Positions 5,883 to 60,097 of a stretch of DNA of 64,000 nt are shown here, one piece after another (the first letter of the stretch is position 1; every line of letters begins with the position of its first letter). The DNA is from Escherichia phage DCP548: the sequence record PQ671645.1. One strand, written 5' to 3'. The translations under genes were made by a program, and so were the position numbers. Below the pieces are notes generated by a model. The model was not told the DNA's origin. It saw only the letters and a list, made by a program, of their open reading frames with translations, and did not search any database.

Positions 5883-7354
5883 GGTCCAAATACGTCTTCA
5901 AACGAATCCGCTTCTGTTTTATCAAAACGGAACCCTTTAATAATTGGAAGGAAAATACCTACAGTGCCTTCACGTCCTTTAGAATGAACCCAACCATTGC
6001 ATTCACAATCAGCAATACGTCCAATCAATTTACCTTCACGAGCTTCGGTCATTAATCGTTCACGGTCCAAATCATGACGCTCATCTAAAGGAATAAGAAC
6101 CTTTACACCATCAACTGTTTTATGAGTTGTATCTTTAAACCCTGAACCACAATCGGTTGTAATACGACGACAACGTGATACGAGTTCGACACCACCTAAT
6201 TTGTTAGGGTCTTTAGAGTGTTCATAGTATCCTACAACTTCTAAAGCGATATCAATAACTTCTTTAAATTTAATTAGGTTCTTAGAGCGTTTGTTTTCCC
6301 AGTATGAATCACGGTTTTTAAGGATAATACCTTCAAGACCTTGGTCAACATATTTTTTATAAACCACTTTAGCTTCGTCAAGATTACGAACTAACTGATT
6401 TTCAATTGGCTCAATTCGCTTAAAGCCTTCAGCCATATTTTCAAGAGCAGCAAAACGAACATCGTATTTCTGGCCTTTAATTTTGCCATCAGAATAGACT
6501 TCATCTAAAGGAACATAGTCCCAGGCTTGAAGAACCATACCTTCCGCTTCTTTAGGAGAAATAGTCCCTTGAAGAGATTTATTTGCTAAACCATTTGAAG
6601 TGCTACGGTCTGCAACTTGTACTTCTTCGGATTCTTCATTATCACCAAATAAGAACGACAGGTCATTTCCTGAGCTCACAGCCTTTTTAATATCAAATGA
6701 ATGATAAACTAATTCACCGTCGATTAAAACCCCATTAGGGTGTCTTTCACGAGCTTCTTTAGTCATTTCCATTAGTTCATCCGCTAATAGAGTAAGACCA
6801 TGGTATTCGTTACCGGCACGAGAAAAGAATTGAACACCATCATCGCGAACTTCAGCGAAACAACGAGCACCGTCTGCTTTTAATTGGGCAAATGCTGGCC
6901 ATTTAATATTTTTAGTAATCAATTTCTCATCATATGCAGATGCTAACATCTGTGGTTGCAATTGAATAAGTCCAGGCCACACCTTATTCGCGATAGACAC
7001 TGAAGCACCTACTTCAAGGTCTCGCATCATTACACGACGAAGGACTTCTACATCATCAGGTTTACCGTCAGCGATATAACCCATGAGCTCTTTAATTGCA
7101 GCATTACCAGTGAGTTTACGAGTGGCTAATGTGAACTCAATAAAATCCAACATGTCATCTAATTCAAGAAGACCATACGCTTGAGACCTTTCACCTGGTC
7201 CTGGCCATTTCTTAATATAATACTGGATACCACGTGCATATGTTAAACGATACACACGTTCAAGTAATTTGTTGTCCTTATTTTTCTTAAGGATTTCTTG
7301 TTTTGTTTTAGTAGAACCGATCGCAGCTATTTGGTTTAAAATATCTAAAATCAT
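5861..7354 (-). CDS. 30: ATP-dependent DNA ligase gp30
   Basis: 497 aa; N-terminus MILDILNQIAAIGSTKTKQEI and C-terminal FEDVFG motif closely match T4 DNA ligase (487 aa). Confidence 0.95.
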   Translation of the reverse strand: MILDILNQIAAIGSTKTKQEILKKNKDNKLLERVYRLTYARGIQYYIKKWPGPGERSQAYGLLELDDMLDFIEFTLATRKLTGNAAIKELMGYIADGKPDDVEVLRRVMMRDLEVGASVSIANKVWPGLIQLQPQMLASAYDEKLITKNIKWPAFAQLKADGARCFAEVRDDGVQFFSRAGNEYHGLTLLADELMEMTKEARERHPNGVLIDGELVYHSFDIKKAVSSGNDLSFLFGDNEESEEVQVADRSTSNGLANKSLQGTISPKEAEGMVLQAWDYVPLDEVYSDGKIKGQKYDVRFAALENMAEGFKRIEPIENQLVRNLDEAKVVYKKYVDQGLEGIILKNRDSYWENKRSKNLIKFKEVIDIALEVVGYYEHSKDPNKLGGVELVSRCRRITTDCGSGFKDTTHKTVDGVKVLIPLDERHDLDRERLMTEAREGKLIGRIADCECNGWVHSKGREGTVGIFLPIIKGFRFDKTEADSFEDVFGPWSQTGL

Positions 7355-7620
7355 TTGATGTCCTCGATTTTGGTTACGGTTCTATTATAAGCCACTTCAT
7401 CTAGAAGCGATTTCAGCGTTTTCTGATAAGTGGTAATCCATTTACCGAGTCCTTCAACATAGTATTCTGAAATGTAGATGAACCCTTGTTCAACACACTC
7501 TTTAAATATTTCTGCGTCTTTTACTGAACGAAACAATGGCCAGTCTCGAAAGAACATGTTAACGTGACCGTAGTCACGTGTGGTGTTTTTGCCATCTGTA
7601 ATATCATGAACTACAAACAT
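7351..7620 (-). CDS. Hypothetical protein (30.1 position)
   Basis: 89-aa ORF immediately downstream of ligase with overlapping start/stop. Confidence 0.5.
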   Translation of the reverse strand: MFVVHDITDGKNTTRDYGHVNMFFRDWPLFRSVKDAEIFKECVEQGFIYISEYYVEGLGKWITTYQKTLKSLLDEVAYNRTVTKIEDIK

Positions 7621-7622
7621 AA

Positions 7623-8459
7623 TTAACCCTTAGTTGTGCCGTAACCTTGTGGAACTGCCCAATACGGAGGAACAGGATGTTCGCCTACATTAGTGTATCG
7701 CCAATGAGGCAGCATATCGGTTGGTCCTGGAGTTCGCCAGGTGTACGGATTCGACGGAGCGCCAATTTGATTAGGCCATGCACCTGGACTTGTTGCACCA
7801 GATTCTTTAAGCAAATCCGCCAATCGTTTTAAAAGGTCTTCACGATCTGAATCTGAATTATGCTCGGGTGAAACCAAACGAGATTCAATATCATCCCACG
7901 TGTGTACACGTTGTGCAGTGCGAGGAATATCATCACGTTCACCACGAGCCAACCAATAAATCGGTACATTAAGAATTTCTGCCGCATGGTCACAGTGATG
8001 AGCTAAATCGTCAACGTAACAAATCACGTTATATTTTGTTTTAGCTAGTTCAAATAATTGTTCCTTTGACGAATCATGACCACACATCATTACTTCAGAA
8101 AAAGCGCCTGGGAACAAAGCATTCAAATTAAATTGTCTATTCAATCGAGCATCAATTGAATCACCTAGCGCCGTCACGGCTACAAAATTATAGTCTTCTT
8201 TTAGTTTATTGATAACTCGAAGAGCATCCGAATAAGGCGCTAAGTAACGAATAAAATCAGAGCGATTATATTTTTCTATTAATTGTTTACCGAGGTTATC
8301 ATCGGTATTGAATAGTTTACCAGGAGAAATAAATTTTTCGTCCTGAATCATTTTTAAAATATGTTCTAATGGAAGATTATATTTTTGGGCAAAATAAGGA
8401 AGTCCAGATTGCCAGCTTAAACATACACCATCAATGTCAGTCAAAATAGTAGGCTTCAT
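7623..8459 (-). CDS. HAD-superfamily-like hydrolase with Pro/aromatic-rich C-terminal tail (30.2 position)
   Basis: N-terminal TILTDIDGV matches HAD motif I (DxDG[TV]); later ICYVDDLAHH resembles motif IV; last about 55 aa are low-complexity P/W/Y/G rich. Confidence 0.5.
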   Translation of the reverse strand: MKPTILTDIDGVCLSWQSGLPYFAQKYNLPLEHILKMIQDEKFISPGKLFNTDDNLGKQLIEKYNRSDFIRYLAPYSDALRVINKLKEDYNFVAVTALGDSIDARLNRQFNLNALFPGAFSEVMMCGHDSSKEQLFELAKTKYNVICYVDDLAHHCDHAAEILNVPIYWLARGERDDIPRTAQRVHTWDDIESRLVSPEHNSDSDREDLLKRLADLLKESGATSPGAWPNQIGAPSNPYTWRTPGPTDMLPHWRYTNVGEHPVPPYWAVPQGYGTTKG

Positions 8460-8923: not shown

Positions 8924-9119
8924 TTATAATTTCAACATCAGCCCAATGACCATAAGCCGGTAGACGGTCTTTGATAGATAATCCACCGTCATATTTCAGC
9001 ATTTTAATTGTTTTAGTATATGGTTCAACTTTTCGGACCCATGGGCTTACATCAGTCACACGATACGTAACTTCAACCATTTCTGTACCTAACAATTTCT
9101 GGATTAATTTATTCAACAT
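8907..9119 (-). CDS. Hypothetical small protein
   Basis: 70-aa ORF in the 30.x block, overlapping neighbours by a few nt. Confidence 0.4.
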   Translation of the reverse strand: MLNKLIQKLLGTEMVEVTYRVTDVSPWVRKVEPYTKTIKMLKYDGGLSIKDRLPAYGHWADVEIISVKDV

Positions 9120-9306
9120 GTTTCAACCCTTTAATAGGAGATAACTCTTTACCCATACGTATGTCAGAAGTCCAATCAACCCATTGAACAGCATACGCTT
9201 CATTGATAATTCCAGCGGCGGTTTTAAATTCAGGGAGAACTTTAAAAATCACCCCAGGAATTCCAACACCTTTTAATTGGACTGTTTGTGCTATTAAAAA
9301 TTTCAT
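9109..9306 (-). CDS. Hypothetical small protein
   Basis: 65-aa ORF preceded by an early-promoter-like cassette at 9331-9361. Confidence 0.4.
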   Translation of the reverse strand: MKFLIAQTVQLKGVGIPGVIFKVLPEFKTAAGIINEAYAVQWVDWTSDIRMGKELSPIKGLKHVE

Positions 9307-9360
9307 ATTTTTCCACTTACTAAAGAAATCATTATACTCTAATCCGTCCTTGGATGTAAA

Positions 9361-9975
9361 CTACTTAATGAAATTAATTTCTACAGGATGAACAACAGGT
9401 TGAGCAGTGATATATTGAGTAATTGCTTTCATGACTAGAGCTTCAGAACCAGGATTTTTCTCAACGAATTCACGTGCTTGGTTATGAGCTTCAAGTTCAC
9501 TTAGTAAACCACTTCGTTGACATCCACGGTCTTGAGTACCCTGTTCAGATAAAAAGGCGACGATGTATTTTTCATCGTCATACGGTTTAGGCAGTTGAGC
9601 AAATGTTCCTTTACTTCCGAAAGGAGAGTTATGTCGCCACATAACGCCGTGAGGAGTTTCAACCTTCGTATATTCATGCGGGCCATTTTTCTTAGTTTCT
9701 TGTTGTGGAACTTCATGGACCTTAGGGTTAGGACATTCAATAAAATGCTCATCTAAATCAGTCGAGAATATTAAAGTAAAACAATTACTGAATTTACCAA
9801 CACCAGCCTGATAAATTTTACCTTCAGAAGTTCTAATTTCACAAACTGAGCCAGCATCAGTAACTTCTAAAACTTCAAAAGGCTCGATAAGGTCATATGA
9901 GAACATGTTTTTAAGGCGTGGAGTAATATCCCCATTTTTAAAATTCATTTTATAAAAAGTATTAACTTTAAACAT
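9361..9975 (-). CDS. Hypothetical protein
   Basis: Track ORF 9361..10005 trimmed to Met MFKVNTF (start codon 9973-9975), which has a GAGGAAA Shine-Dalgarno; the extension would run through the hairpin at 9988-10003. Confidence 0.5.
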   Translation of the reverse strand: MFKVNTFYKMNFKNGDITPRLKNMFSYDLIEPFEVLEVTDAGSVCEIRTSEGKIYQAGVGKFSNCFTLIFSTDLDEHFIECPNPKVHEVPQQETKKNGPHEYTKVETPHGVMWRHNSPFGSKGTFAQLPKPYDDEKYIVAFLSEQGTQDRGCQRSGLLSELEAHNQAREFVEKNPGSEALVMKAITQYITAQPVVHPVEINFIK

Positions 9976-10010
9976 AATTTCCTCAGTGGGAGCCGAAGCT
10001 CCCAATTAAA

Positions 10011-45475: not shown

Positions 45476-45505
45476 ACTATATCATAGTCCTACTTAGTTG
45501 TAAAC
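45476..45505 (-). promoter_or_regulatory. T4-type early promoter in a stem-loop cassette upstream of ORF 45186..45449
   Basis: -35 GTTTAC (plus 45500-45505), 18-bp spacer, -10 TATAGT; inverted repeat taggact/agtccta (45469-45492). Confidence 0.45.
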
Positions 45506-50959: not shown

Positions 50960-52775
50960 AGGACATCCATTCTTTACGAAGTTCTGAATCATCACCCATC
51001 AACATTTCAAAGAGTTCTTTCCAATTTTCAGGAAGTTTAACTACGTCGTACACAGGGTTCTGAATCATTTCACGATATTCTGACTTTTCAAGGGAGCCTA
51101 ATCCCTTGATGTATCGAATACTATGCTTAGGCAGTGTATCTTTAACTTCTTCATACTCAGCTACAGTATAAAACCATTTTTGAGTTTTGCCAATTTGTGC
51201 AATAATTACAGGCGTTTTAACAAAGCGAATACGTCCTTGTTCAAACAATTCAGGCCAATTACTAAAGAAAGCAAGCAAAGCCGGATAGATACTTCCAAGA
51301 CCGTCATGATCGGCATCGGTCATAATTGCAATATTACGATAGTTCGTATTCTCTGCCTTTTCACCAAGAATAAGACCTGTGATAGCACAGATATCGAAGA
51401 GCTCTTTGTTCTTCATCATATCGGCATATGACATACCCCAGCTATTCATCACCTTACCACGTAATGGGAATCCACCGTGTAGTTCACGGTCACGAACATC
51501 AATGAGATAACCAATTGCCGAATCACCTTCTGTTAAAAACAATGTCGTATCTGCATCTTTACCACATTGGTTAGCTTTAATATGCTTATGAACCTTAGCT
51601 TTAGTTGCCTTTTTAGCTGCTTTAGTTTCTGCAGCCTTTTCTGCTGCCAATTTACGAGCTAATGCTGCTTCAACAATAGGCATAATCAAGGCTTCGTTTT
51701 TAAGAAGTGCCTGAGCAATTTTCTTAGCATCTAATTGGATATGATTACGAATATCGCCATACGTTGACGTTAAACGTTCTTTAGTCTGAGAATCAAAACG
51801 CATGTTGCTCATGTCTCTAATAAACATCAACATTGTGAGACATTCTTTAACACGAGCTTTAGTGACTTCAATACCCTTATATTTCTTTTTAATACCCGGC
51901 AAAAGATGTTCGCAGATATCATCCATTACACATTCAACATGATGACCACCATTTTTAGTATGGATGTTATTCACATAAGTTAAATGACGGAAGCCGTCCG
52001 GCGATGTTGTGAATGCTATAGAGACTTTATCATTTTCTTGAATGATGCTATCTTCGCCAAATTGTTTAGCAAATCGTTTAAAATTACCATCAACCTTTTT
52101 ACCATTAAATGTGAACTTGATATCAGGATAAACGACTGCCAATGTTTGAAGTCGGTCTAAAGTAATATCTAAATAAATTTGAGATAAATTATGCTCTTCA
52201 AATGAAGAGAAATCAGGAGTGAAGATTACTTTAGTGCCTTTACCTTTAGATTTCTTAGAAGACCATGATTTGTTTTCCATTCCGTTTGAACAGTTAACAG
52301 TGATTTCATTTTCGCCATCTGACGTGATGCCTGTAAACAACGTAGAGAAGATATTAGTTAAACTACTCCCGACGCCGTTCATACCACCAGTCTTGCGTTC
52401 AGAGTCATCACCAAAGTTACCACCGGCCTTTGGAATAGTCCAGGCCGCTACAGGCCCAGGAATTTGTTCACCTGTTTGGTCGGTAACTAAACCTTGAGGA
52501 ATACCACGCCCGTTATCTTCCACTGAAACTTGATTATTTTTAATTTGCACATCAATTTTATTTGCAAACTTAAATGATGTACGAATAGCTTCATCAACCG
52601 AGTTGTCAATAATCTCATCGATTAATTTAACCAGACCAGGAACATATTCAACTTGTTGATATTTACCAAACAAAAAACGCTCGTGGGCTTCTTTAGCCGA
52701 AGAACCAATATACATACCACTACGTTTCTTAATATGTTCTACATCTGACAATACCTTAATTTCATTTTTAATCAT
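50958..52775 (-). CDS. 39: DNA topoisomerase II large subunit (GyrB-like), uninterrupted gp39+gp60 form
   Basis: 605 aa; N-terminal GHKL ATPase; C-terminal 130 aa (IAIMTDADHDGLGSIYP...KLPENWKELFEMLMGD) match T4 gp60, so the protein is contiguous with no bypass element. Confidence 0.95.
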   Translation of the reverse strand: MIKNEIKVLSDVEHIKKRSGMYIGSSAKEAHERFLFGKYQQVEYVPGLVKLIDEIIDNSVDEAIRTSFKFANKIDVQIKNNQVSVEDNGRGIPQGLVTDQTGEQIPGPVAAWTIPKAGGNFGDDSERKTGGMNGVGSSLTNIFSTLFTGITSDGENEITVNCSNGMENKSWSSKKSKGKGTKVIFTPDFSSFEEHNLSQIYLDITLDRLQTLAVVYPDIKFTFNGKKVDGNFKRFAKQFGEDSIIQENDKVSIAFTTSPDGFRHLTYVNNIHTKNGGHHVECVMDDICEHLLPGIKKKYKGIEVTKARVKECLTMLMFIRDMSNMRFDSQTKERLTSTYGDIRNHIQLDAKKIAQALLKNEALIMPIVEAALARKLAAEKAAETKAAKKATKAKVHKHIKANQCGKDADTTLFLTEGDSAIGYLIDVRDRELHGGFPLRGKVMNSWGMSYADMMKNKELFDICAITGLILGEKAENTNYRNIAIMTDADHDGLGSIYPALLAFFSNWPELFEQGRIRFVKTPVIIAQIGKTQKWFYTVAEYEEVKDTLPKHSIRYIKGLGSLEKSEYREMIQNPVYDVVKLPENWKELFEMLMGDDSELRKEWMS

Positions 52776-52821
52776 GTTGTCTCCTCGTTATGAAGGTATT
52801 CTATCATCCGAAATCTAAAGC

Positions 52822-52838
52822 AAAAAGGGCCGAAGCCC
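52822..52838 (-). terminator. Intrinsic terminator-like hairpin after ORF 52839..53264
   Basis: gggc-cgaa-gccc with aaaaa on the plus side (U5 on the minus transcript). Confidence 0.45.
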
Positions 52839-53264
52839 TTATTTAAATTTAATTTTCTGAAGTGCATCAATTGCAGCCAAACGCCCTTGTTCACTTTTAA
52901 CTGTAATGACCACATCGCCTGATACGATCACCGAACCATCAACAAATTCTATAGAGCCTTTTTTGAAATCGACAGCTGTATCTGGTTCCGGAACTTCTTC
53001 AAAGAATTTAAATTCTGCACCATAAAGCAGAATATCACCTTGCATACTATGAATAGTTCGGCCATAATCGCCTACGGCTTCTACAGCAATAACCGAAACG
53101 CCGTAACCAATCATCTCTTCCACAATAAAATCTTTGGACAATAAAGTAGTATGCAGATTAGTATTAAGACGCTTACCAGTCGTATTAAGAATTCTCAAGA
53201 AATTATCTTCCTGTCCTTTGATAATACGATATTTCTTACCAACTTCAAAACCTTTAAAAGCCAT
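52839..53264 (-). CDS. Hypothetical protein
   Basis: 141-aa ORF followed by a CGAA-loop terminator hairpin at 52827-52838. Confidence 0.45.
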   Translation of the reverse strand: MAFKGFEVGKKYRIIKGQEDNFLRILNTTGKRLNTNLHTTLLSKDFIVEEMIGYGVSVIAVEAVGDYGRTIHSMQGDILLYGAEFKFFEEVPEPDTAVDFKKGSIEFVDGSVIVSGDVVITVKSEQGRLAAIDALQKIKFK

Positions 53265-53266
53265 AA

Positions 53267-53446
53267 TTAACCCTTCTTAAGTAAGTCGTAAAAACCACCG
53301 TTCACATGTTTAGGAGCAGAAACCCGACGAGTAGACAGACGATGACATTCAGGGCAAACATCGTTTTCTCGTTCAGAAATTCTTTTAATTTTTTCATATT
53401 CATGGCCACAATCTTCAGATTGACATTTATAGTCGTATAACGGCAT
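53267..53446 (-). CDS. FmdB-family zinc-ribbon protein (59 aa), not in the ORF track
   Basis: Hand translation MPLYDYKCQSEDCGHEYEKIKRISERENDVCPECHRLSTRRVSAPKHVNGGFYDLLKKG; MP.Y.Y.C..CGH.FE ... CP.C signature of FmdB-type regulatory zinc ribbons. Confidence 0.55.
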   Translation of the reverse strand: MPLYDYKCQSEDCGHEYEKIKRISERENDVCPECHRLSTRRVSAPKHVNGGFYDLLKKG

Positions 53447-53448
53447 TA

Positions 53449-53877
53449 TTATTCCTTAAAATGTGCTTTCAACATTTGATACAAAGACCATGCCTGGTCG
53501 TTATTTTCGATAGTAATCGTCATCACCGGAAATTCAGACAATTCGTCAAGTTCACCAGAATCTTGCTCTTCGGACGCTAGATATGGATTTTCAACTTCGT
53601 CAAAGAACTCTGCTTCATTCGTGGAGAGCCAGATAAAGTTTTCATCAAGGATATCACCGCCTGTTGCGTATCCAACCGTGCCAGTAGATGTCACAATTTT
53701 AGTAGGACGACCAAGATGGTCAACATCTAATACTTTAAATGGTTCCATGCCAAGACGTCGTGCATAAATCCCATTATCAGTGTGGTCTTTAATAAACTCT
53801 TCTTGGGCACGTTTATCTATAAATTGATACCATGAGTTAACGCGGAATTTATTAGCCATTAGTAAGTTTCCTTCCAA
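53449..53877 (-). CDS. Hypothetical protein
   Basis: 142-aa ORF; true start may be the downstream Met (MANKF). Confidence 0.45.
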
Positions 53878-54086
53878 TAAGTTGTACCATTTTCAGTGAT
53901 TTCACGGAAGATACCATAGATAGGCATTTTGTCGCCTAGTTTTTCGTAAACGTAAACCACTTCAGTGTAGCATAAAAATTCAGTCCAGTTTTTCTGTACA
54001 ACAACTAAATCAGGATTAAACAGAACATCTTCAAACTCATCGATGTTTGAATCAGTAGTTACGTTTTTAATGATTTGACGTTTCAT
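53859..54086 (-). CDS. Hypothetical small protein
   Basis: Track ORF 53859..54131 trimmed to Met MKRQI (start codon 54084-54086; AGGAGAA SD), because the extension covers the promoter at 54115-54144. Confidence 0.4.
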
Positions 54087-54114
54087 AATATTCTCCTCTT
54101 GTTTTGATAGGTCT

Positions 54115-54144
54115 ATAGTATCATAGACCATAGTTGTTGTACAT
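54115..54144 (-). promoter_or_regulatory. T4-type early promoter upstream of ORF 53859..54086
   Basis: -35 ATGTAC variant (plus 54139-54144), 18-bp spacer, -10 TACTAT; near-palindromic ggtctatagtatcatagacc. Confidence 0.4.
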
Positions 54145-54668
54145 CATTTTAGCAAAATAAAATCAACTTGTTCTGCCAATGAACGTCTGAACATTAATTG
54201 ACAACTTCCGAGGATGAAATCAGGTGCTTCATAGACCGCGATGTAGTATCCTTTAGCTTTCAAGAGTTCAACATCCACCTGGTCATCAAACCATGCATAA
54301 ACCGCGTCAACACTTTCAAATCCAAAATAGAACCCTTGAGCCCAATCTTCACTCAGTTCAAATGTGTAATCAATTCTATAGTATCTTAAGATATTTTGTT
54401 CAAGGAGTTTGTCTTCATTTACTGTAGGACGATTAGGGACATTGTAGTTGTCGCCGTGATGGTAGAAGTTACCTGAGATTATTCCATGTTTATCAAGGAA
54501 CTCCCATGTTTCTTCAGAGTTGTCGGTGCCCGACCAGCCGTACGGCGAACGAGGTTCTTTATTCCAAGAGGTTTCCCAAATTCTGACGGCTTTACCGTCT
54601 TCGATAGCAATTCCTGGTAATGATTCACGTTGAGTACAAAAACTACGTTCTACGCGGTAAACTAACAT
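54144..54668 (-). CDS. Hypothetical protein
   Basis: Track ORF trimmed to Met MLVYRVERSF (start codon 54666-54668; GAGGAGAA SD); early promoter 54695-54723 upstream. Confidence 0.45.
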   Translation of the reverse strand: MLVYRVERSFCTQRESLPGIAIEDGKAVRIWETSWNKEPRSPYGWSGTDNSEETWEFLDKHGIISGNFYHHGDNYNVPNRPTVNEDKLLEQNILRYYRIDYTFELSEDWAQGFYFGFESVDAVYAWFDDQVDVELLKAKGYYIAVYEAPDFILGSCQLMFRRSLAEQVDFILLK

Positions 54669-54694
54669 ATTATTCTCCTCTGGTTGATATGGAT

Positions 54695-54723
54695 ATAATA
54701 TCAAAACCAGAGGAGAAGTAAAC
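54695..54723 (-). promoter_or_regulatory. T4-type early promoter upstream of ORF 54144..54668
   Basis: -35 GTTTAC (plus 54718-54723), 17-bp spacer, -10 TATTAT. Confidence 0.45.
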
Positions 54724-54727
54724 AACT

Positions 54728-55147
54728 TTATGCAAAAGATGCTGGGCAATATTTTTTGATTTGGAACTCAGGAACTACCATGAACTGACCAGCGAAAACG
54801 ATGTTATAAAGCTTAACACCATCTTCTACCCAACGGTCGCTAATAAATCCGGCGATTTGCTTAGTTTTCCACGGCGTTCCATCAGTTGCCGCAGCAATAG
54901 TGAATTCATGGTCTTTTACAACTAAAACAGACCTGCACAGTTTCCATTTGAACACACGTTCTTCTGACTCAATGAATTGGCTTTTAACATAACCAATGTT
55001 ACCATCAGCGTCACGAACTTTAACTTCGTTACGTCCAAAAACCGGATCACTCACAGAAAGAACTTCAACCAACTTCCCGGCAACTTTAGAGCGAGAAGCA
55101 ACAGATACATATACGTAATCACCTGTAGAGAGATTTACAATATTCAT
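54728..55147 (-). CDS. Hypothetical protein, member A of a three-gene tandem paralogue family
   Basis: 139 aa; shares N-terminal (..VASRSKVAGKLVEV..) and C-terminal (GFISDRWVEDGVKLYNIVFAGQF.VVPE) blocks with the ORF at 55157..55654. Confidence 0.5.
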   Translation of the reverse strand: MNIVNLSTGDYVYVSVASRSKVAGKLVEVLSVSDPVFGRNEVKVRDADGNIGYVKSQFIESEERVFKWKLCRSVLVVKDHEFTIAAATDGTPWKTKQIAGFISDRWVEDGVKLYNIVFAGQFMVVPEFQIKKYCPASFA

Positions 55148-55156
55148 AATAATTCC

Positions 55157-55654
55157 TTAAGCTTTAAGAGGAGACACATAGCGAGTGATTTCAGATTCTT
55201 TAACAACTCGGAAGTCACCTAAGAATACGATATTGTATAACTTTTCACCATCTTCAACCCATTGGTCACTAATGAAGCCACACATGATATCGGTTGTGCT
55301 TGGATAACCGTATTCGTCGATGTAATCGAATTCTTTATCGGTTATAAATTCAACGCCTTTACACAAGGCCCATTTGAACTGTACATTAGGCTCAACGATA
55401 TCGCTTGAAGCAAAGTGTGCAGGTGCAACTTCTTCGCTTGAAGCAAATTGGACTCGTATATGTTTTTCCAGGAATTTAGGACTTACGTAAGCATACTGGG
55501 CATCTTGTCCGCCAAAACTGGGGATGATTCGAACTTTAACTTCTTTAACACGTCCCATGCCGTTAGTACGAAGCCCTGCTACTTCAACCAGACGACCTGC
55601 AGCTTTAGAACGAGAAGCAGGAGATACACGAAGGATTTCACCAATAGTAATCAT
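55157..55654 (-). CDS. Hypothetical protein, member B of the tandem paralogue family
   Basis: Track ORF trimmed to Met MITIGEIL (start codon 55652-55654); C-terminal block GFISDQWVEDGEKLYNIVFLGDFRVVKE; promoter 55685-55714 upstream. Confidence 0.5.
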   Translation of the reverse strand: MITIGEILRVSPASRSKAAGRLVEVAGLRTNGMGRVKEVKVRIIPSFGGQDAQYAYVSPKFLEKHIRVQFASSEEVAPAHFASSDIVEPNVQFKWALCKGVEFITDKEFDYIDEYGYPSTTDIMCGFISDQWVEDGEKLYNIVFLGDFRVVKESEITRYVSPLKA

Positions 55655-55684
55655 ATTTTTTCTCTCTTTGTTTAAGTTGAATTC

Positions 55685-55714
55685 ATTATACTCCATCCAT
55701 CCTTGGATGTACAA
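55685..55714 (-). promoter_or_regulatory. T4-type early promoter upstream of paralogue B
   Basis: -35 TTGTAC variant (plus 55709-55714), 18-bp spacer, -10 TATAAT; shares the attatactcc...ccttgg motif with cassettes at 9331 and 56243. Confidence 0.4.
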
Positions 55715-55716
55715 CA

Positions 55717-56211
55717 TTAATTTAGAATATTAACTACTGCACTACGTGGAACCACACTAAAATCACCGGCATGAACAACGTTCAGAAGTTCAACCCCATC
55801 TTCAATCCACTGGTCAGTTACCCATCCATTTACCGGACCATCGAATGGGCGTCGAATTGAAACATATTTACACAACAAATCAGTAGGCTCAATAGGCTTA
55901 ATCAGAGTACCGTACATACAAACGATATCCATATCAAAGTGGAGACCATCTTTAACAGGTGCTTCTTCAATCAACAGTTCAAAGTCGGTGCTTGGAATGG
56001 CAGTAGTAGAAATTGTACCGTATGAATTTTTAATTTCTAAGAATAACCAAGGGCCTTCAACTTGTTTGATGAAGTTAACAATAGTGAAACTATTACCTTG
56101 AGTGGCACCTAAAATTTCACAAAACTTTTCATAAGCTCGCACTGAAGCACCGTACCAGTTGATTTGTTTTTCGTCTTTCAGGATGTAAGTAGCCATAGTA
56201 TTGATATTCAT
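55717..56211 (-). CDS. Hypothetical protein, member C of the tandem paralogue family
   Basis: 164 aa; C-terminal block GWVTDQWIEDGVELLNVVHAGDFSVVP is shared with members A and B; promoter 56243-56272 upstream. Confidence 0.5.
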   Translation of the reverse strand: MNINTMATYILKDEKQINWYGASVRAYEKFCEILGATQGNSFTIVNFIKQVEGPWLFLEIKNSYGTISTTAIPSTDFELLIEEAPVKDGLHFDMDIVCMYGTLIKPIEPTDLLCKYVSIRRPFDGPVNGWVTDQWIEDGVELLNVVHAGDFSVVPRSAVVNILN

Positions 56212-56242
56212 AATGTTTTTCCTGTTTGGTTAAGATAGAAAG

Positions 56243-56272
56243 ATTATACTCCAACCGTCCTTGGTTGTAAAC
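56243..56272 (-). promoter_or_regulatory. T4-type early promoter upstream of paralogue C
   Basis: -35 GTTTAC (plus 56267-56272), 18-bp spacer, -10 TATAAT; same cassette family as 9331-9361 and 55685-55714. Confidence 0.45.
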
Positions 56273-56277
56273 TGGTT

Positions 56278-56955
56278 TTATCGCTGTTTTACACTTAACG
56301 GGTCAGGATTCTCAGGGACATCTTCAAGACCAAGCGCATAACGCTGAGCATATTTTAACATCAAAATATCTTTAGCACAATCATGAATACTATCATGGGC
56401 AACGAATCCTTTTAGCGTACCCATCGGTAATGGACACATACTTAATCCTCGTGTCAACGAGTAAGCTTCGATTGCCGTACGAATATCACGTTGAGCCCAG
56501 AATTTAACCGGTTCTAATTTATCAGTATCAATCTCTGGTTCAGGAACACCTTCATCACGATAGAGGTCACGAATCAAATCGACCAATATCGGGAAGTCAA
56601 AGCTCATACCACGGCACCACATCTGTGATTTCCATTGGTCAACTTTATTAGCTCGGCAATAGTCTAAAAAGATTTTAATGCCTTCAAGCGTAGTGACATC
56701 ATCTTCAGACGGAGCAAGGTTTTTACGTGCTTCTGCTGATTGTTCTTTCCACCATTTCATAGTGGATTTAGCGAAAACTCGCTTCCCTTTCTGAGAAGCT
56801 AAATTAAATTTAATTCGCTTACCTCGTTGAACAAGTTCTTCAAATGATTCAACAACTTCAGGGTCGGAATTATATGCAATAACCGCAAGGTCAATAACAG
56901 CCGCTTTTGATGTATTGCCGAATGTTTCAAAATCTATAATAACATCAGTGCTCAT
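56278..56955 (-). CDS. dexA: Exonuclease A (DnaQ-like 3'-5' exonuclease)
   Basis: 225 aa (T4 DexA 227 aa); N-terminal IIDFETFG exo motif I; position immediately downstream of dda. Confidence 0.8.
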   Translation of the reverse strand: MSTDVIIDFETFGNTSKAAVIDLAVIAYNSDPEVVESFEELVQRGKRIKFNLASQKGKRVFAKSTMKWWKEQSAEARKNLAPSEDDVTTLEGIKIFLDYCRANKVDQWKSQMWCRGMSFDFPILVDLIRDLYRDEGVPEPEIDTDKLEPVKFWAQRDIRTAIEAYSLTRGLSMCPLPMGTLKGFVAHDSIHDCAKDILMLKYAQRYALGLEDVPENPDPLSVKQR

Positions 56956-56964
56956 AATTTTCTC

Positions 56965-58278
56965 TCAAATAAAATGGACGTCAAACCGACCACGAGTTGT
57001 GCCAACATACAATAACTGTTTAGCTAATTCTGAATCGGCATAATGGATACACGGTGTATAAACAAAGGCTGTGTCAACAGACATACCCTGGGCCTTATGG
57101 AAGGTTGATACTGGTAGTGCCTTCACCTTAGTGAACATGCGTTTAGCATCCCAGAATTCGCTCCATGGAGCTTTACCACCTTTATTCCAGAATTTGTATG
57201 TTTCTGCGGTCTTAGCCAAAAACAAATTGAATTTATAAAGCTCTTCTTCAGAAGAAATAACCTTTATATCTTCGCGGATGTATTCTTCATCATCCCCATA
57301 TGTTTCTACTGTAAGATTCCAGTATCGTATCATATATTCGCCTGAAACGCCACGTGCTTTAACGAATGTAGACGTTTCTACAGCATCTCGAATACGAACG
57401 AATTGCCCGTTATTGAAAAGCATTTCGGTCATATTTTTACCATCTAGCTTATATGTCTTAGTAAATGGCTCTTGTAGAACAATGACTTCATCTTTAATAA
57501 ATGGTTTTTCTGTTTCAAGAAGTTTTCGGCGAATAATTGAATTTAACTTGTCCACCGACTTATTTGTGAATGCCATCATTCGATTTTCGAAAAGGTCTTC
57601 AGGAGTTTTAACAACGTTAAAATAGTTCATCATATACGATTTAAGGTCTGTATATCCATGAACACCGTGCCCATCAACTACTTTATCGTAAATCCATTTG
57701 CCATTACGAATATCAGTCGCAACATCAATAATTGGCGCATTGCTACGTTTAACTTCTGTAAGGTCGCATTGCACGAAGTCTTTGTGAGTGAAGAAAGGAC
57801 TTAGATACGCAGTTGATTCGCCTGGGTCTACCGGACGAATCTGGCATCGGTCGCCGATTCCAATTACTGTACACCATTTAGGGATACTAGCTAACATTAT
57901 TTTAAACAGAGAACGGTCGCACATTGACGCTTCATCAAATAACAGTACACGACACAAGGCTAAGTCTGGAACCTTTTTCTGTTCAAATAATACGTTTTCT
58001 TCGTATGTAGTTGGGTTGATTTTAAGAATGCTATGAATAGTCGATGCTTCTTGACCAGCAAGTTTGCTTAGAACCTTTTTAGCGGCATGTGTAGGGGCTG
58101 CTAAAATAATACCTGATTCTCCAGAAGAAATAAGGGCTTCAACGATGAATCTAGTAAGGGTTGTTTTACCTGTACCAGCAGGTCCATTAATAGTTACATG
58201 ATGTTTCTTTTCTTTAATAGCTTCCATAACAACGTTGAAGGCGTTTTTCTGGCCTTCAGTCAAATCATCAAATGTCAT
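56965..58278 (-). CDS. dda: Dda DNA helicase (SF1B)
   Basis: 437 aa (T4 Dda 439 aa); N-terminus MTFDDLTEGQKNAFNVV and Walker A GPAGTGKTT match T4 Dda. Confidence 0.9.
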   Translation of the reverse strand: MTFDDLTEGQKNAFNVVMEAIKEKKHHVTINGPAGTGKTTLTRFIVEALISSGESGIILAAPTHAAKKVLSKLAGQEASTIHSILKINPTTYEENVLFEQKKVPDLALCRVLLFDEASMCDRSLFKIMLASIPKWCTVIGIGDRCQIRPVDPGESTAYLSPFFTHKDFVQCDLTEVKRSNAPIIDVATDIRNGKWIYDKVVDGHGVHGYTDLKSYMMNYFNVVKTPEDLFENRMMAFTNKSVDKLNSIIRRKLLETEKPFIKDEVIVLQEPFTKTYKLDGKNMTEMLFNNGQFVRIRDAVETSTFVKARGVSGEYMIRYWNLTVETYGDDEEYIREDIKVISSEEELYKFNLFLAKTAETYKFWNKGGKAPWSEFWDAKRMFTKVKALPVSTFHKAQGMSVDTAFVYTPCIHYADSELAKQLLYVGTTRGRFDVHFI

Positions 58279-58586
58279 CGTAAAGTCCCTGCAATTGGAA
58301 TACTAACAATACGGCCTGTGTCCAGGATTCGTTGATACAATTTTTGCGTCTCCGCATCTAGTTTAATGTGTTTCATTTCAAGCTTATTAAACCAGAACTT
58401 ACGCGGAGTTTCGACCATTCTTAGAACTCCCATTTTTAAATCTGTTTTATACTGTGTTTTCAAAGTATCGAAAACTTTATCTGCAATATCCTTTCTAAAA
58501 AATACTGCAGGACGATGCTCATCAAGTGGAACCGGGACAGTAAATCCTTCCATATCTCGATAAACTATTGCATATACATAAACCAT
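58275..58586 (-). CDS. Hypothetical protein (dda.1 position)
   Basis: 103-aa ORF; stop overlaps the dda start. Confidence 0.45.
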   Translation of the reverse strand: MVYVYAIVYRDMEGFTVPVPLDEHRPAVFFRKDIADKVFDTLKTQYKTDLKMGVLRMVETPRKFWFNKLEMKHIKLDAETQKLYQRILDTGRIVSIPIAGTLR

Positions 58587-58588
58587 AA

Positions 58589-59335
58589 TTAACCTTTAAT
58601 CAGTTGGAATAATGATGCGCTAAGTGGTAGGCCACGTTTCAATTTTAATTTACCAATGAAACCGATCTTTTCAAAACGTTGCAGACCTTGGATAACTTTA
58701 TCATATGTATCGAAAAGCGATTCAGCATCAGTTAATTTAGTTTTAGTTTTCCAGTCAGAGCCTTTAAGAAGAACGTTGAGTTTAGTAAGTTCATGGCCTT
58801 CTGCTTGATGTGAGCCATTAATGCGTGCTTTCAAAGCAACAATTCTAAGTTTAGATTCGTTAGATAAAGGTTGATTTTTCATCATGTTCGCCATATGCTT
58901 AACACGGTTTTCACGTTTTGCTCGGATTTTTAAAATAGTACCATAAACCTTTTTAATTTGGGCCCATTTCTTCTCGTCGAGATTAAGTTTCTCTACTTTA
59001 CGGGCAGAAGGATTAGCGATACGTCTTGCAATGGCATCACGTTTCTCAATAAGTTCTTCTAATGTTAAATCAGAACGAGCCGTGTTATATTTTTTCTTAA
59101 CTGGGATAACATTACCTTTAATGTAGCCGATATCATTATTAAAACGTTCTAAGGATAATTTCTCACCTTCAACAGAGTTATTGAAAGATTCACCTGAGTA
59201 AGCGCAGACCTTTTGATCAAGAATGTTTTTAAGGTAATTAAAGTCTAAGTTAAAATCCTTAGAGCGTCTCTTCGCAGAAGCTCTGGTGTGGTCAAGACGA
59301 CGATTAATTTTGTTAATTTTATTATTTGATAACAT
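58589..59335 (-). CDS. Hypothetical basic protein at the T4 srd position (Srd-like by position only)
   Basis: 248 aa, Lys/Arg-rich; lies between dda and modA where T4 has srd; no motif-level confirmation. Confidence 0.4.
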   Translation of the reverse strand: MLSNNKINKINRRLDHTRASAKRRSKDFNLDFNYLKNILDQKVCAYSGESFNNSVEGEKLSLERFNNDIGYIKGNVIPVKKKYNTARSDLTLEELIEKRDAIARRIANPSARKVEKLNLDEKKWAQIKKVYGTILKIRAKRENRVKHMANMMKNQPLSNESKLRIVALKARINGSHQAEGHELTKLNVLLKGSDWKTKTKLTDAESLFDTYDKVIQGLQRFEKIGFIGKLKLKRGLPLSASLFQLIKG

Positions 59336-59385
59336 AATATTTTCCTCTGTCTTACGGACGTTAAGGTCATTTAGCTGATAAGCTT

Positions 59386-59414
59386 ATAATATCATGCCCT
59401 CAGGTAGTGTACAC
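59386..59414 (-). promoter_or_regulatory. T4-type early promoter upstream of the srd-position ORF
   Basis: -35 GTGTAC variant (plus 59409-59414), 17-bp spacer, -10 TATTAT. Confidence 0.4.
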
Positions 59415-59488
59415 TCTTTTTTCATAAAATGCTTTAATTTTTTATGTGTTATAATGGTTCTGAGTTCCATCCGGTTATTCCAATTCAG

Positions 59489-60097
59489 TCAGTAACTGAC
59501 AATAGACAGATTCCAGATTGTATAACGTCCATCCTGAATAATAGAATCTACACGCAGTGTAGTCCCTATAGGGAGCATAAATTCACATTCGTCAGATATA
59601 AGTCTAGCATTAGACCGTCTTGTCGCTTCAGGGAAAGCTCCATTGAACTCACAAGATGGCGCAGCCAGAATCATGTTAAGCATATGTTCACGGAAGTTGA
59701 AAGCAAATGGTGCATCTTTGATGCAGAACATATTAAATGTTCCGTAAAAATTATACGAAGCAAAGTTACGTGCTACACCGAACACTGGGCTGAAGCTCAT
59801 TACTCTGTCAAATTTAATAATACTACCAATACCTTTATCATCGAGTGTGGCCATAGTTTTCTTAGAGATTCCACGATACATTGTCTCAGGAACAGAAGAC
59901 GTCCAATTTCTACGAACGATTGAACTTAACTCCTGTTGAATACAGTCTGGCTTGTTTTCCATACACTGCCACAGTACACTTTGTTCAATGTCGCTGAATT
60001 GACTATCAATTTCGTACTGCAATACATCTTGATATTCGGGGTTTTGAGCACGACGAACCATTTCTTCAATTTCACACTCGTTATACGGCATAAACAT
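59489..60097 (-). CDS. modA: ModA-like ADP-ribosyltransferase
   Basis: 202 aa (T4 ModA about 200 aa); ART-like R / S-x-S / E-x-E elements (MYRGISK, SFSPVFG, ECEFML); tandem paralogue of the next gene. Confidence 0.6.
   Translation of the reverse strand: MFMPYNECEIEEMVRRAQNPEYQDVLQYEIDSQFSDIEQSVLWQCMENKPDCIQQELSSIVRRNWTSSVPETMYRGISKKTMATLDDKGIGSIIKFDRVMSFSPVFGVARNFASYNFYGTFNMFCIKDAPFAFNFREHMLNMILAAPSCEFNGAFPEATRRSNARLISDECEFMLPIGTTLRVDSIIQDGRYTIWNLSIVSY

Follow-up and report, generated by a model that had tools for sequence, protein, structure and literature searches.

Three minus-strand open reading frames lie head to tail between gene 39 and dexA in the 64,000-nucleotide stretch of Escherichia phage DCP548 that we analyzed (PQ671645.1; hereafter the window), and they raise the question of whether such an array is one gene recently copied in place or a set of related genes with a longer history. 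The original prediction, made from the sequence, favored the former: three tandem paralogs, each behind a near-identical early promoter, that had been amplified locally and were diversifying in the manner of host-takeover or anti-defence families. Here we examine the identity, domain architecture, promoters and evolution of these genes, and weigh that reading against others.

Three MotB-family genes downstream of dexA

The three frames were found exactly where they had been predicted, and their location between gene 39 and dexA, in an early and variable region, was confirmed. ORF2 (55157..55654, minus strand, 165 aa) is the ortholog of T4 MotB: BLASTP aligned the two over their full length (45.5% identity, E 1e-42), and ORF2 also matched the Pfam motB model PF17613 over its full length (1.2e-37) and phrog_1671 (2e-62). 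ORF1 (54728..55147, minus strand, 139 aa), which is shorter and has no linker, is a second MotB copy; it is 39% identical to T4 MotB by BLASTP and matched PF17613 (E 3.4e-22) and phrog_1671 (3e-51). ORF3 (55717..56211, minus strand, 164 aa) is a homolog of T4 MotB.1 (38% identity, E 6e-26 by BLASTP) that matched phrog_2333 (6e-81), and its best structural matches in BFVD are MotB.1-family proteins, including T4 P39415. The guess that the genes belong to a host-takeover family was thus borne out, the family being MotB; as to an anti-defence role, our analysis turned up no evidence other than the effect on H-NS already published for MotB.

The next gene in the direction of transcription, ORF0 (54144..54668, minus strand, 174 aa), which we considered as context, is a homolog of T4 MotB.2 (34% identity, E 1e-16 by BLASTP) that matched phrog_1106, and PF26820 (Phage_T4_Y00F) was found in a relative's product. 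ORF0 is no paralog of ORF1–3, with none of which it gave a significant BLASTP match. The transcription order in the window is dexA, motB.1 homolog (ORF3), motB (ORF2), second motB (ORF1), motB.2 homolog (ORF0), cef; in T4 it is dexA, motB.2, motB.1, motB, cef. The Mosigvirus genomes ST0, HX01, and NBG1 are 93–97% identical to the window at the DNA level with the same gene order, and in such genomes the annotation calls the counterparts of ORF1–3 MotB-like regulators or hypothetical proteins. We are confident that the source of the window is a Mosigvirus-type, T4-like phage and that ORF1–3 are its MotB-family early genes. An Rfam scan of positions 52000–59500 returned no RNA families.

A longer, 186-aa reading of ORF2, starting with the ATG at 55717, stays open in some relatives only and spans the promoter; since its N-terminus is unlike that of T4 MotB, 55654 is the likely start of ORF2. 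A terminator-like match within ORF2 (55369-55355) was treated as spurious.

Nature of the paralogy

In pairwise BLASTP comparisons ORF1 and ORF2 are 40% identical over 159 columns (E 4e-29), ORF1 and ORF3 are 55% identical over 29 aa (E 1e-9), and ORF2 and ORF3 are 44% identical over 36 aa (E 5e-9). All three proteins score above the 25-bit gathering threshold of PF17613 (79.5, 129.7, and 34.7 bits for ORF1, ORF2, and ORF3, respectively), with the match in ORF3 limited to the C-terminal part of the model. A C-terminal core, DxW[VI]E[DE]GxxLxN[IV]V, was found in each of them, and multiple alignment bore out the previously noticed blocks (DRWVEDGVKLYNIVFAGQFMVV in ORF1, DQWVEDGEKLYNIVFLGDFRVV in ORF2, and DQWIEDGVELLNVVHAGDFSVV in ORF3). 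Profile-profile comparison of the MotB and MotB.1 C-terminal domains with hhalign gave a probability of 98.9% (E 3e-17). The shared C-terminal block therefore reflects true homology, not chance.

The N-terminal domains told a different story. Compared by hhalign, those of MotB and MotB.1 are unrelated (0.4% probability). A first comparison had suggested that they are related (89%), which proved to be an artefact of the KOW-type sequences P0179 and P0181 in the MotB.1 alignment; the lower value was obtained once these and two other divergent sequences, P0139 and P0157, had been removed. The ASRSKxAGxLVEV block was, as predicted, confined by the alignment to ORF1 and ORF2, both of which have a KOW-like N-terminal domain with the SRSKAAGKLVEV motif. 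A sequence match to the Pfam KOW model (PF00467) was not obtained. Because ORF3 lacks this domain, we assigned it to MotB.1 and not to MotB proper (PHROG 1671; Category 1 of PMC7827196); its homology to the MotB.1 subfamily (PHROG 2333) is full-length and includes an LSm/SH3-like N-terminal barrel. Judged by sequence, ORF1 and ORF2 are whole-gene paralogs, and ORF3 shares with them only the C-terminal domain of about 55 aa. The claim of three tandem paralogs thus holds as far as paralogy goes, but the genes are not three copies of one gene. A common C-terminal domain and differing N-terminal domains of MotB and MotB.1 have been described before, and a possible duplication was proposed (Patterson-West et al., 2021, PMC7827196, section 3.2 and Discussion); the N-terminal domain of MotB.1 has been grouped with GoF and Frd.2 into a family of LSm-like barrels (Kim et al., 2025, PMC12152347).

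The two MotB copies differ in how charge is distributed. In ORF2, the KOW-like N-terminal domain is basic (aa 1-66, net charge +5.6), whereas both the linker (aa 67-91) and the C-terminal domain (aa 92-165, net charge -6.2) are acidic. In ORF1 the pattern is reversed: a KOW-like N-terminal domain of net charge -1.5 (aa 1-64) is followed by a basic C-terminal domain of net charge +2.8 (aa 65-139). T4 MotB is basic (pI 9.2), its charge being located in the N-terminal domain, whereas ORF2 is acidic overall (pI 5.5) and basic in its N-terminal domain only, so it may bind DNA more or less strongly than T4 MotB does. The ORF2 linker contains a tandem duplication of 33 nt (55388..55450, minus strand; repeat D5, 77% identity) that encodes FASSEEVAPAH and FASSDIVEPNV; the HX01 counterpart has one 33-nt unit fewer and is 154 aa long. 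In ORF3, the LSm/SH3-like barrel (aa 1-85; 55957-56211, minus strand) and the MotB-type C-terminal domain (aa 109-164; 55720-55887, minus strand) are separated by a linker that was modeled with low confidence. ORF3 is acidic throughout (pI 4.6), and DNA binding on its own is therefore unlikely.

Comparison with T4 also drew attention to the reference sequence of motB.1. In AF158101.6/NC_000866.4 this gene has one extra G (GGATTGGAAGATGG in place of GGATTGAAGATGG), as a result of which the reference MotB.1 is 119 aa long and ends before its C-terminal domain is complete; past the extra G, the +1 frame carries on with the conserved C-terminus. Alignments of 13 other T4 records and of RB55 and RB59 have a one-base gap in the motB.1 region, which corresponds to the extra G in the two T4 records that were compared directly, both annotated with a 143-aa MotB.1. 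A mass of 13.8 kDa is given in the published experiments on MotB.1, with reference to NC_000866.4 (PMC12152347). Studies on the 119-aa form may thus concern a protein without the end of the conserved domain.

Predicted structures

AlphaFold2 was run with family alignments, giving a mean pLDDT of 83.1 for ORF1 and 76.8 for ORF3. Each protein was modeled as two small beta-barrels, every barrel ending in a strand, a 3-10 turn, and another strand, although the shallow alignments (31 and 21 sequences) and pTM values of 0.47–0.60 make the relative orientation of the domains unreliable. A search of PDB sequences with the MotB profile gave nothing meaningful (best E 0.81), hence no solved structure of a relative. 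The fold assignment that had been proposed as a check on the array yielded two SH3/Tudor/KOW-like barrels per model, which suggests a tandem architecture of this type for the whole family. ORF1 and ORF2 would each combine a KOW-like N-terminal barrel (SRSKxAGxLVEV) with the family C-terminal barrel (DxW[VI]EDGxxLxN[IV]V), and ORF3 would carry the same C-terminal barrel behind an unrelated LSm/SH3-like one. The C-terminal domain was previously assigned to the OB fold by HHpred (Patterson-West et al., 2021), whereas in our models it looks SH3/Tudor-like.

Promoter-like sites and leaders

Two T4-type early promoter-like sites accompany the three genes. P3 (56243..56271, minus strand), on the 5′ side of ORF3 and just after the dexA stop codon, consists of TTTACA, 17 nt, and TATAAT and agrees with 11 of 12 consensus positions; it is kept in five related loci. 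P2 (55685..55713, minus strand), on the 5′ side of ORF2, consists of TGTACA, 17 nt, and TATAAT and agrees with 10 of 12; it is kept in six loci, in some of them with TATAGT or TATAGC as the -10 element, and at the homologous site in T4, in front of motB, there is likewise an early-type promoter. The consensus matches point to promoter function for both. The 22-mer CCAAGGAyGGwTGGAGTATAAT occurs exactly twice in the window, on the 5′ side of ORF3 and of ORF2, against an expectation of 0.01, and promoter plus leader of the two genes are 75% identical over 57 nt (repeat D2). The near-identical promoter predicted for every gene is thus present before ORF3 and ORF2 but not before ORF1, on whose 5′ side we found no promoter. 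Instead, 9 nt containing an AAGGA ribosome-binding site separate the ORF2 stop from the ORF1 start, a junction that is kept in six related loci. Given this conserved junction and the lack of a promoter of its own, ORF1 is probably co-transcribed with ORF2. The same CCAAGGACGG spacer recurs in a promoter in front of an unrelated gene of 65 aa near window position 9361, so promoter similarity is no proof that promoter and gene were duplicated together.

A further promoter-like site lies downstream of ORF1 and belongs to ORF0 (54722-54695, minus strand; TTTACT, 16 nt, TATTAT). It is not near-identical to P3 and P2, and its -10 element is bracketed by a perfect inverted repeat of 11 bp (54705-54715/54675-54685, minus strand) whose downstream arm includes a GAGGAG ribosome-binding site. 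The same layout of promoter and inverted repeat precedes T4 motB.2.

Age, selection, and exchange of modules

Synonymous divergence between the paralogs is saturated (dS 1.3 and 2.7, the third value not being computable). Among five to six Mosigvirus-type orthologs, dN/dS is 0.17 for ORF1, 0.28 for ORF2, and 0.14 for ORF3, compared with 0.05 for dexA, 0.05 for cef, and 0.08 for ORF0; ORF1–3 are under purifying selection that is weaker than that on these neighbors. Their dS (0.18–0.35) is two to four times that of dexA, cef, and ORF0 (about 0.08–0.09), part of which is due to mosaicism. One mosaic relative, locus L006, joins a T4-type N-terminal domain to an ORF2-type C-terminal domain; it inflates the mean dN/dS of ORF2, which is thus no sign of relaxed selection. 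In another, P0028 (Logan contig L029), which lies in a T4-like gene order, the N-terminal domain is of the ORF2 type and the C-terminal domain of the ORF1 type.

We surveyed copy number in 29 loci (28 plus the window) by counting genes with the C-terminal domain. There is one such gene in loci L021-L024, two in nearly all the others, most Tequatrovirus loci included, and three in loci of the Mosigvirus type and in Tequatrovirus Sf24; owing to the frameshift in motB.1, the T4 reference locus counts only one. In KFS-EC3, motB.2 and motB.1 have been lost, whereas motB and the 139-aa copy remain. The C-terminal domain is present in 912 phage records, 214 of which have an ORF1-type copy (at least 60% identity). 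When a profile built from the three C-terminal domains was run against 1.84 billion representative proteins, only 28 clusters matched, which indicates a module confined to a narrow group of phages and attached to several alternative N-terminal domains. Leaving out the weakest matches (one fragment of 43 aa and two long proteins close to the E-value limit), the matching proteins are 101-251 aa long and carry the domain at their C-terminus or close to it. The array is an old family, shuffled as modules among T4-like phages that carry one to three of its genes each: the three-gene block is held by purifying selection and moves between genera as promoter, N-terminal, and C-terminal modules.

Alternative explanations

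The original prediction implied a recent local amplification, a genomic accordion that raised the dosage of an anti-defence or takeover gene whose copies are now diversifying. We give this almost no credence, even though the genes stand head to tail, the segments in front of ORF3 and ORF2 are alike over promoter and leader, and ORF1–3 evolve faster than their neighbors. The paralogs are just 40% identical or have a single domain in common, and the dS between them is saturated, from 1.3 to more than 2.7. These genes are also found in T4, which has motB.1 and motB at this place, and across genera, the block being conserved in Mosigvirus-type loci and Sf24; the similar promoters mark no co-duplicated unit, as the 65-aa gene near 9361 attests. 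The divergence estimates already contradict recent amplification. A second alternative concerns ORF1, which could be a redundant duplicate heading for loss, its function not distinct from that of ORF2. It is shorter than ORF2, has neither linker nor promoter of its own, and is missing from T4 and most Tequatrovirus loci, and in the natural fusion P0028 an ORF2-type N-terminal domain has collapsed onto an ORF1-type C-terminal domain. We nevertheless consider this improbable, as ORF1 is intact in all six loci of the Mosigvirus type and also in the Tequatrovirus phages Sf24 and KFS-EC3, its dN/dS is low (0.17), the ORF1-type C-terminal domain recurs in 214 records, and the charges of the two copies are complementary, basic in the C-terminal domain of ORF1 and in the N-terminal domain of ORF2.

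[quoted passage not shown] It also changes the footprints of H-NS and lifts repression from part of the H-NS regulon, its association with H-NS being through DNA only (PMC7827196). Deletion of T4 motB.1 has no phenotype in laboratory conditions (PMC12152347). Database names bear the label "modifier of transcription" or "MotB-like transcriptional regulator," and KOW-like folds are known in the transcription factors NusG and Spt5; one could accordingly read ORF1–3 as sequence-specific regulators of transcription. This is more improbable still than redundancy of ORF1, since sequence specificity is not detectable for T4 MotB and motB knockdown barely affects T4 transcripts (PMC6070864; PMC7827196, Discussion), and the name is historical.

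A modular family of early, probably DNA-associated proteins

The reading we prefer is that of an old modular family that would act on H-NS-bound host DNA early in infection. In the first minutes, two sigma-70 early promoters would be used, P3 for ORF3 and P2 for ORF2 and, probably, ORF1. By homology with T4 MotB, ORF2 and probably ORF1 would be abundant DNA-binding proteins without sequence specificity that coat host and phage DNA and change the placement of H-NS and StpA, leading to a better phage yield; MotB.1, an acidic protein, carries the same C-terminal module. More speculatively, and as a proposal that we ourselves hold to be rather unlikely as a whole, the C-terminal barrel, of SH3/Tudor-like and not OB fold, might be a common docking or oligomerization module that brings the different N-terminal nucleic-acid-binding barrels of co-expressed early proteins (basic and KOW-like in MotB, acidic and LSm-like in MotB.1) to the same target, for example H-NS/StpA-DNA filaments. 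On that proposal, Mosigvirus-type MotB may have split into a charge-complementary pair between which labor could be divided, ORF2 with a basic N-terminal and ORF1 with a basic C-terminal domain.

As a finding, the array is real but ordinary: motB.1, motB, and a second motB in a T4-like phage form an already described family. It matters little in itself, as it rediscovers the published motB/motB.1 family, its shared C-terminal domain, and its multiple copies in RB69-type phages. The truncation in the T4 reference, the modular spread, and the AlphaFold2 architecture could be a modest aid to work on T4 takeover proteins.

Comparison with known systems

The closest known system is T4 MotB (PF17613, PHROG 1671). 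ORF1 and ORF2 have its two-domain layout and its SRSK and DQWVEDG motifs, and, as in T4, they are located downstream of dexA, with an early-type promoter at the homologous site. In contrast to T4, the window has two copies, of which ORF2 is acidic overall and ORF1 has no linker; DNA binding, toxicity, and copurification with H-NS and StpA are known for the T4 protein alone (PMC6070864, PMC7827196). ORF3 has the same N-terminal barrel and MotB-type C-terminal domain as T4 MotB.1 (PHROG 2333, P39415) but differs by a 24-aa insertion in the linker and by a promoter-like site of its own, whereas T4 motB.1 follows motB.2 without a promoter. T7 gp5.5 and T4 Arn (discussed in PMC7827196) resemble these proteins in their presumed target process, the relief or remodeling of H-NS silencing; they bind H-NS directly, however, and have no relation to MotB in sequence or fold.

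The promoters invite comparison with the promoter-early stem-loop (PeSL) cassettes of T4-type phages (PMC2839356, PMC4122927), in which variable early genes each have a TTTACW-N17-TAYWAT promoter. P3 has both hexamers and P2 has them with one mismatch, while the ORF0 promoter-like site has a spacer of 16 nt, not 17. A clear 11-bp stem is found at the ORF0 site only; P3 and P2 have inverted repeats of 4–5 bp in the spacer and no clear stem-loop. In further likeness to such cassettes, the motB.2 homolog stands elsewhere in the cluster than in T4, yet it has retained its own promoter and the inverted repeat that brackets the -10 element.

In gene content, the window agrees with the motB loci of RB69 and other Mosigvirus phages, RB69 having two motB genes and one motB.1 (Patterson-West et al., 2021, PMC7827196, section 3.2). 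To that account, which does not include them, the present analysis adds the promoter layout, the selection data, and the exchange of modules between genera.

Putative promoter of the motB.2 homolog and sequence variation across the motB cluster

The motB.2 homolog (ORF0, 54144-54668), the gene after ORF1, has a promoter-like site of its own, situated within an 11-bp perfect inverted repeat at 54675-54722 (CTCCTCTGGTT ... AACCAGAGGAG). The downstream arm of this repeat contains the ribosome-binding site of the gene, which therefore could be hidden in transcripts that read through from P2, the early promoter-like site upstream of ORF2, but could not be hidden in transcripts begun at the motB.2-homolog promoter itself. 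The layout of promoter and inverted repeat is the same for T4 motB.2, even though that gene occupies a different position in its cluster.

Within ORF2, the MotB ortholog, the linker contains a 33-nt tandem duplication (55388-55450) encoding FASSEEVAPAH / FASSDIVEPNV. The HX01 counterpart, at 154 aa, has a linker repeat one unit shorter, and thus linker length in ORF2 varies with repeat copy number. Natural mosaics are also present in the MotB family (Logan contig L029, 1373-1894; locus L006, 5443-5991; loci L027 and L028). The family protein P0028 combines an ORF2-type N-terminal domain with a C-terminal domain of the type found in ORF1, the second MotB copy, while L006 joins a T4-type N-terminal domain to an ORF2-type C-terminal domain. 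At the level of the cluster, the whole Mosigvirus-type three-gene block is present in Tequatrovirus Sf24, and KFS-EC3 has lost motB.2 and motB.1.

In T4 reference NC_000866.4, motB.1 (record 7291-7650) carries a single surplus G (GGATTGGAAGATGG; ~4305 of the T4 locus L003), which makes MotB.1 end prematurely, after 119 aa. When aligned to the T4 reference, thirteen further T4 records, along with RB55 and RB59, show a one-base gap at this site. In the two T4 records compared directly, T4T and MT984581, the absent base is this extra G, and the motB.1 product (425-856 in comparison loci L025 and L026) is 143 aa long with a complete MotB-type C-terminal domain. Experiments published on MotB.1 give a size of 13.8 kDa and cite NC_000866.4 (PMC12152347).

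Neighboring GoF-like genes and other early promoters

Gene 39.2 (53267-53446), encoding a small zinc-ribbon protein, is flanked by two minus-strand GoF-like paralogs of 141 and 142 aa (52839-53264 and 53449-53877), both of which match phrog_622. [quoted passage not shown] Whereas T4 has one goF copy at this locus, several Tequatrovirus loci have a second. In HX01, a gene for an HNH endonuclease (509-1192 of locus L001) separates gene 39 from the first goF-like gene; this gene is absent from the window, where the place compared is 52776-52838.

A third early promoter (GTTTACAtccaaggacggattagagTATAAT; 9333-9361, minus strand) has the CCAAGGACGG spacer of P2 and P3, the latter being the site upstream of ORF3. 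The downstream gene (9109-9306, 65 aa) is unrelated, and the promoter comes directly after a 214-aa ORF (9361-10005). In many early-type promoters of the window, an inverted repeat brackets the -10 hexamer (e.g., aggactatgaTATAGTagtcct), with minus-strand examples at 45505, 44993, 25394, 16575, and 10446. In this they resemble the promoter-early stem-loop (PeSL) cassettes of T4-type phages (PMC4122927).
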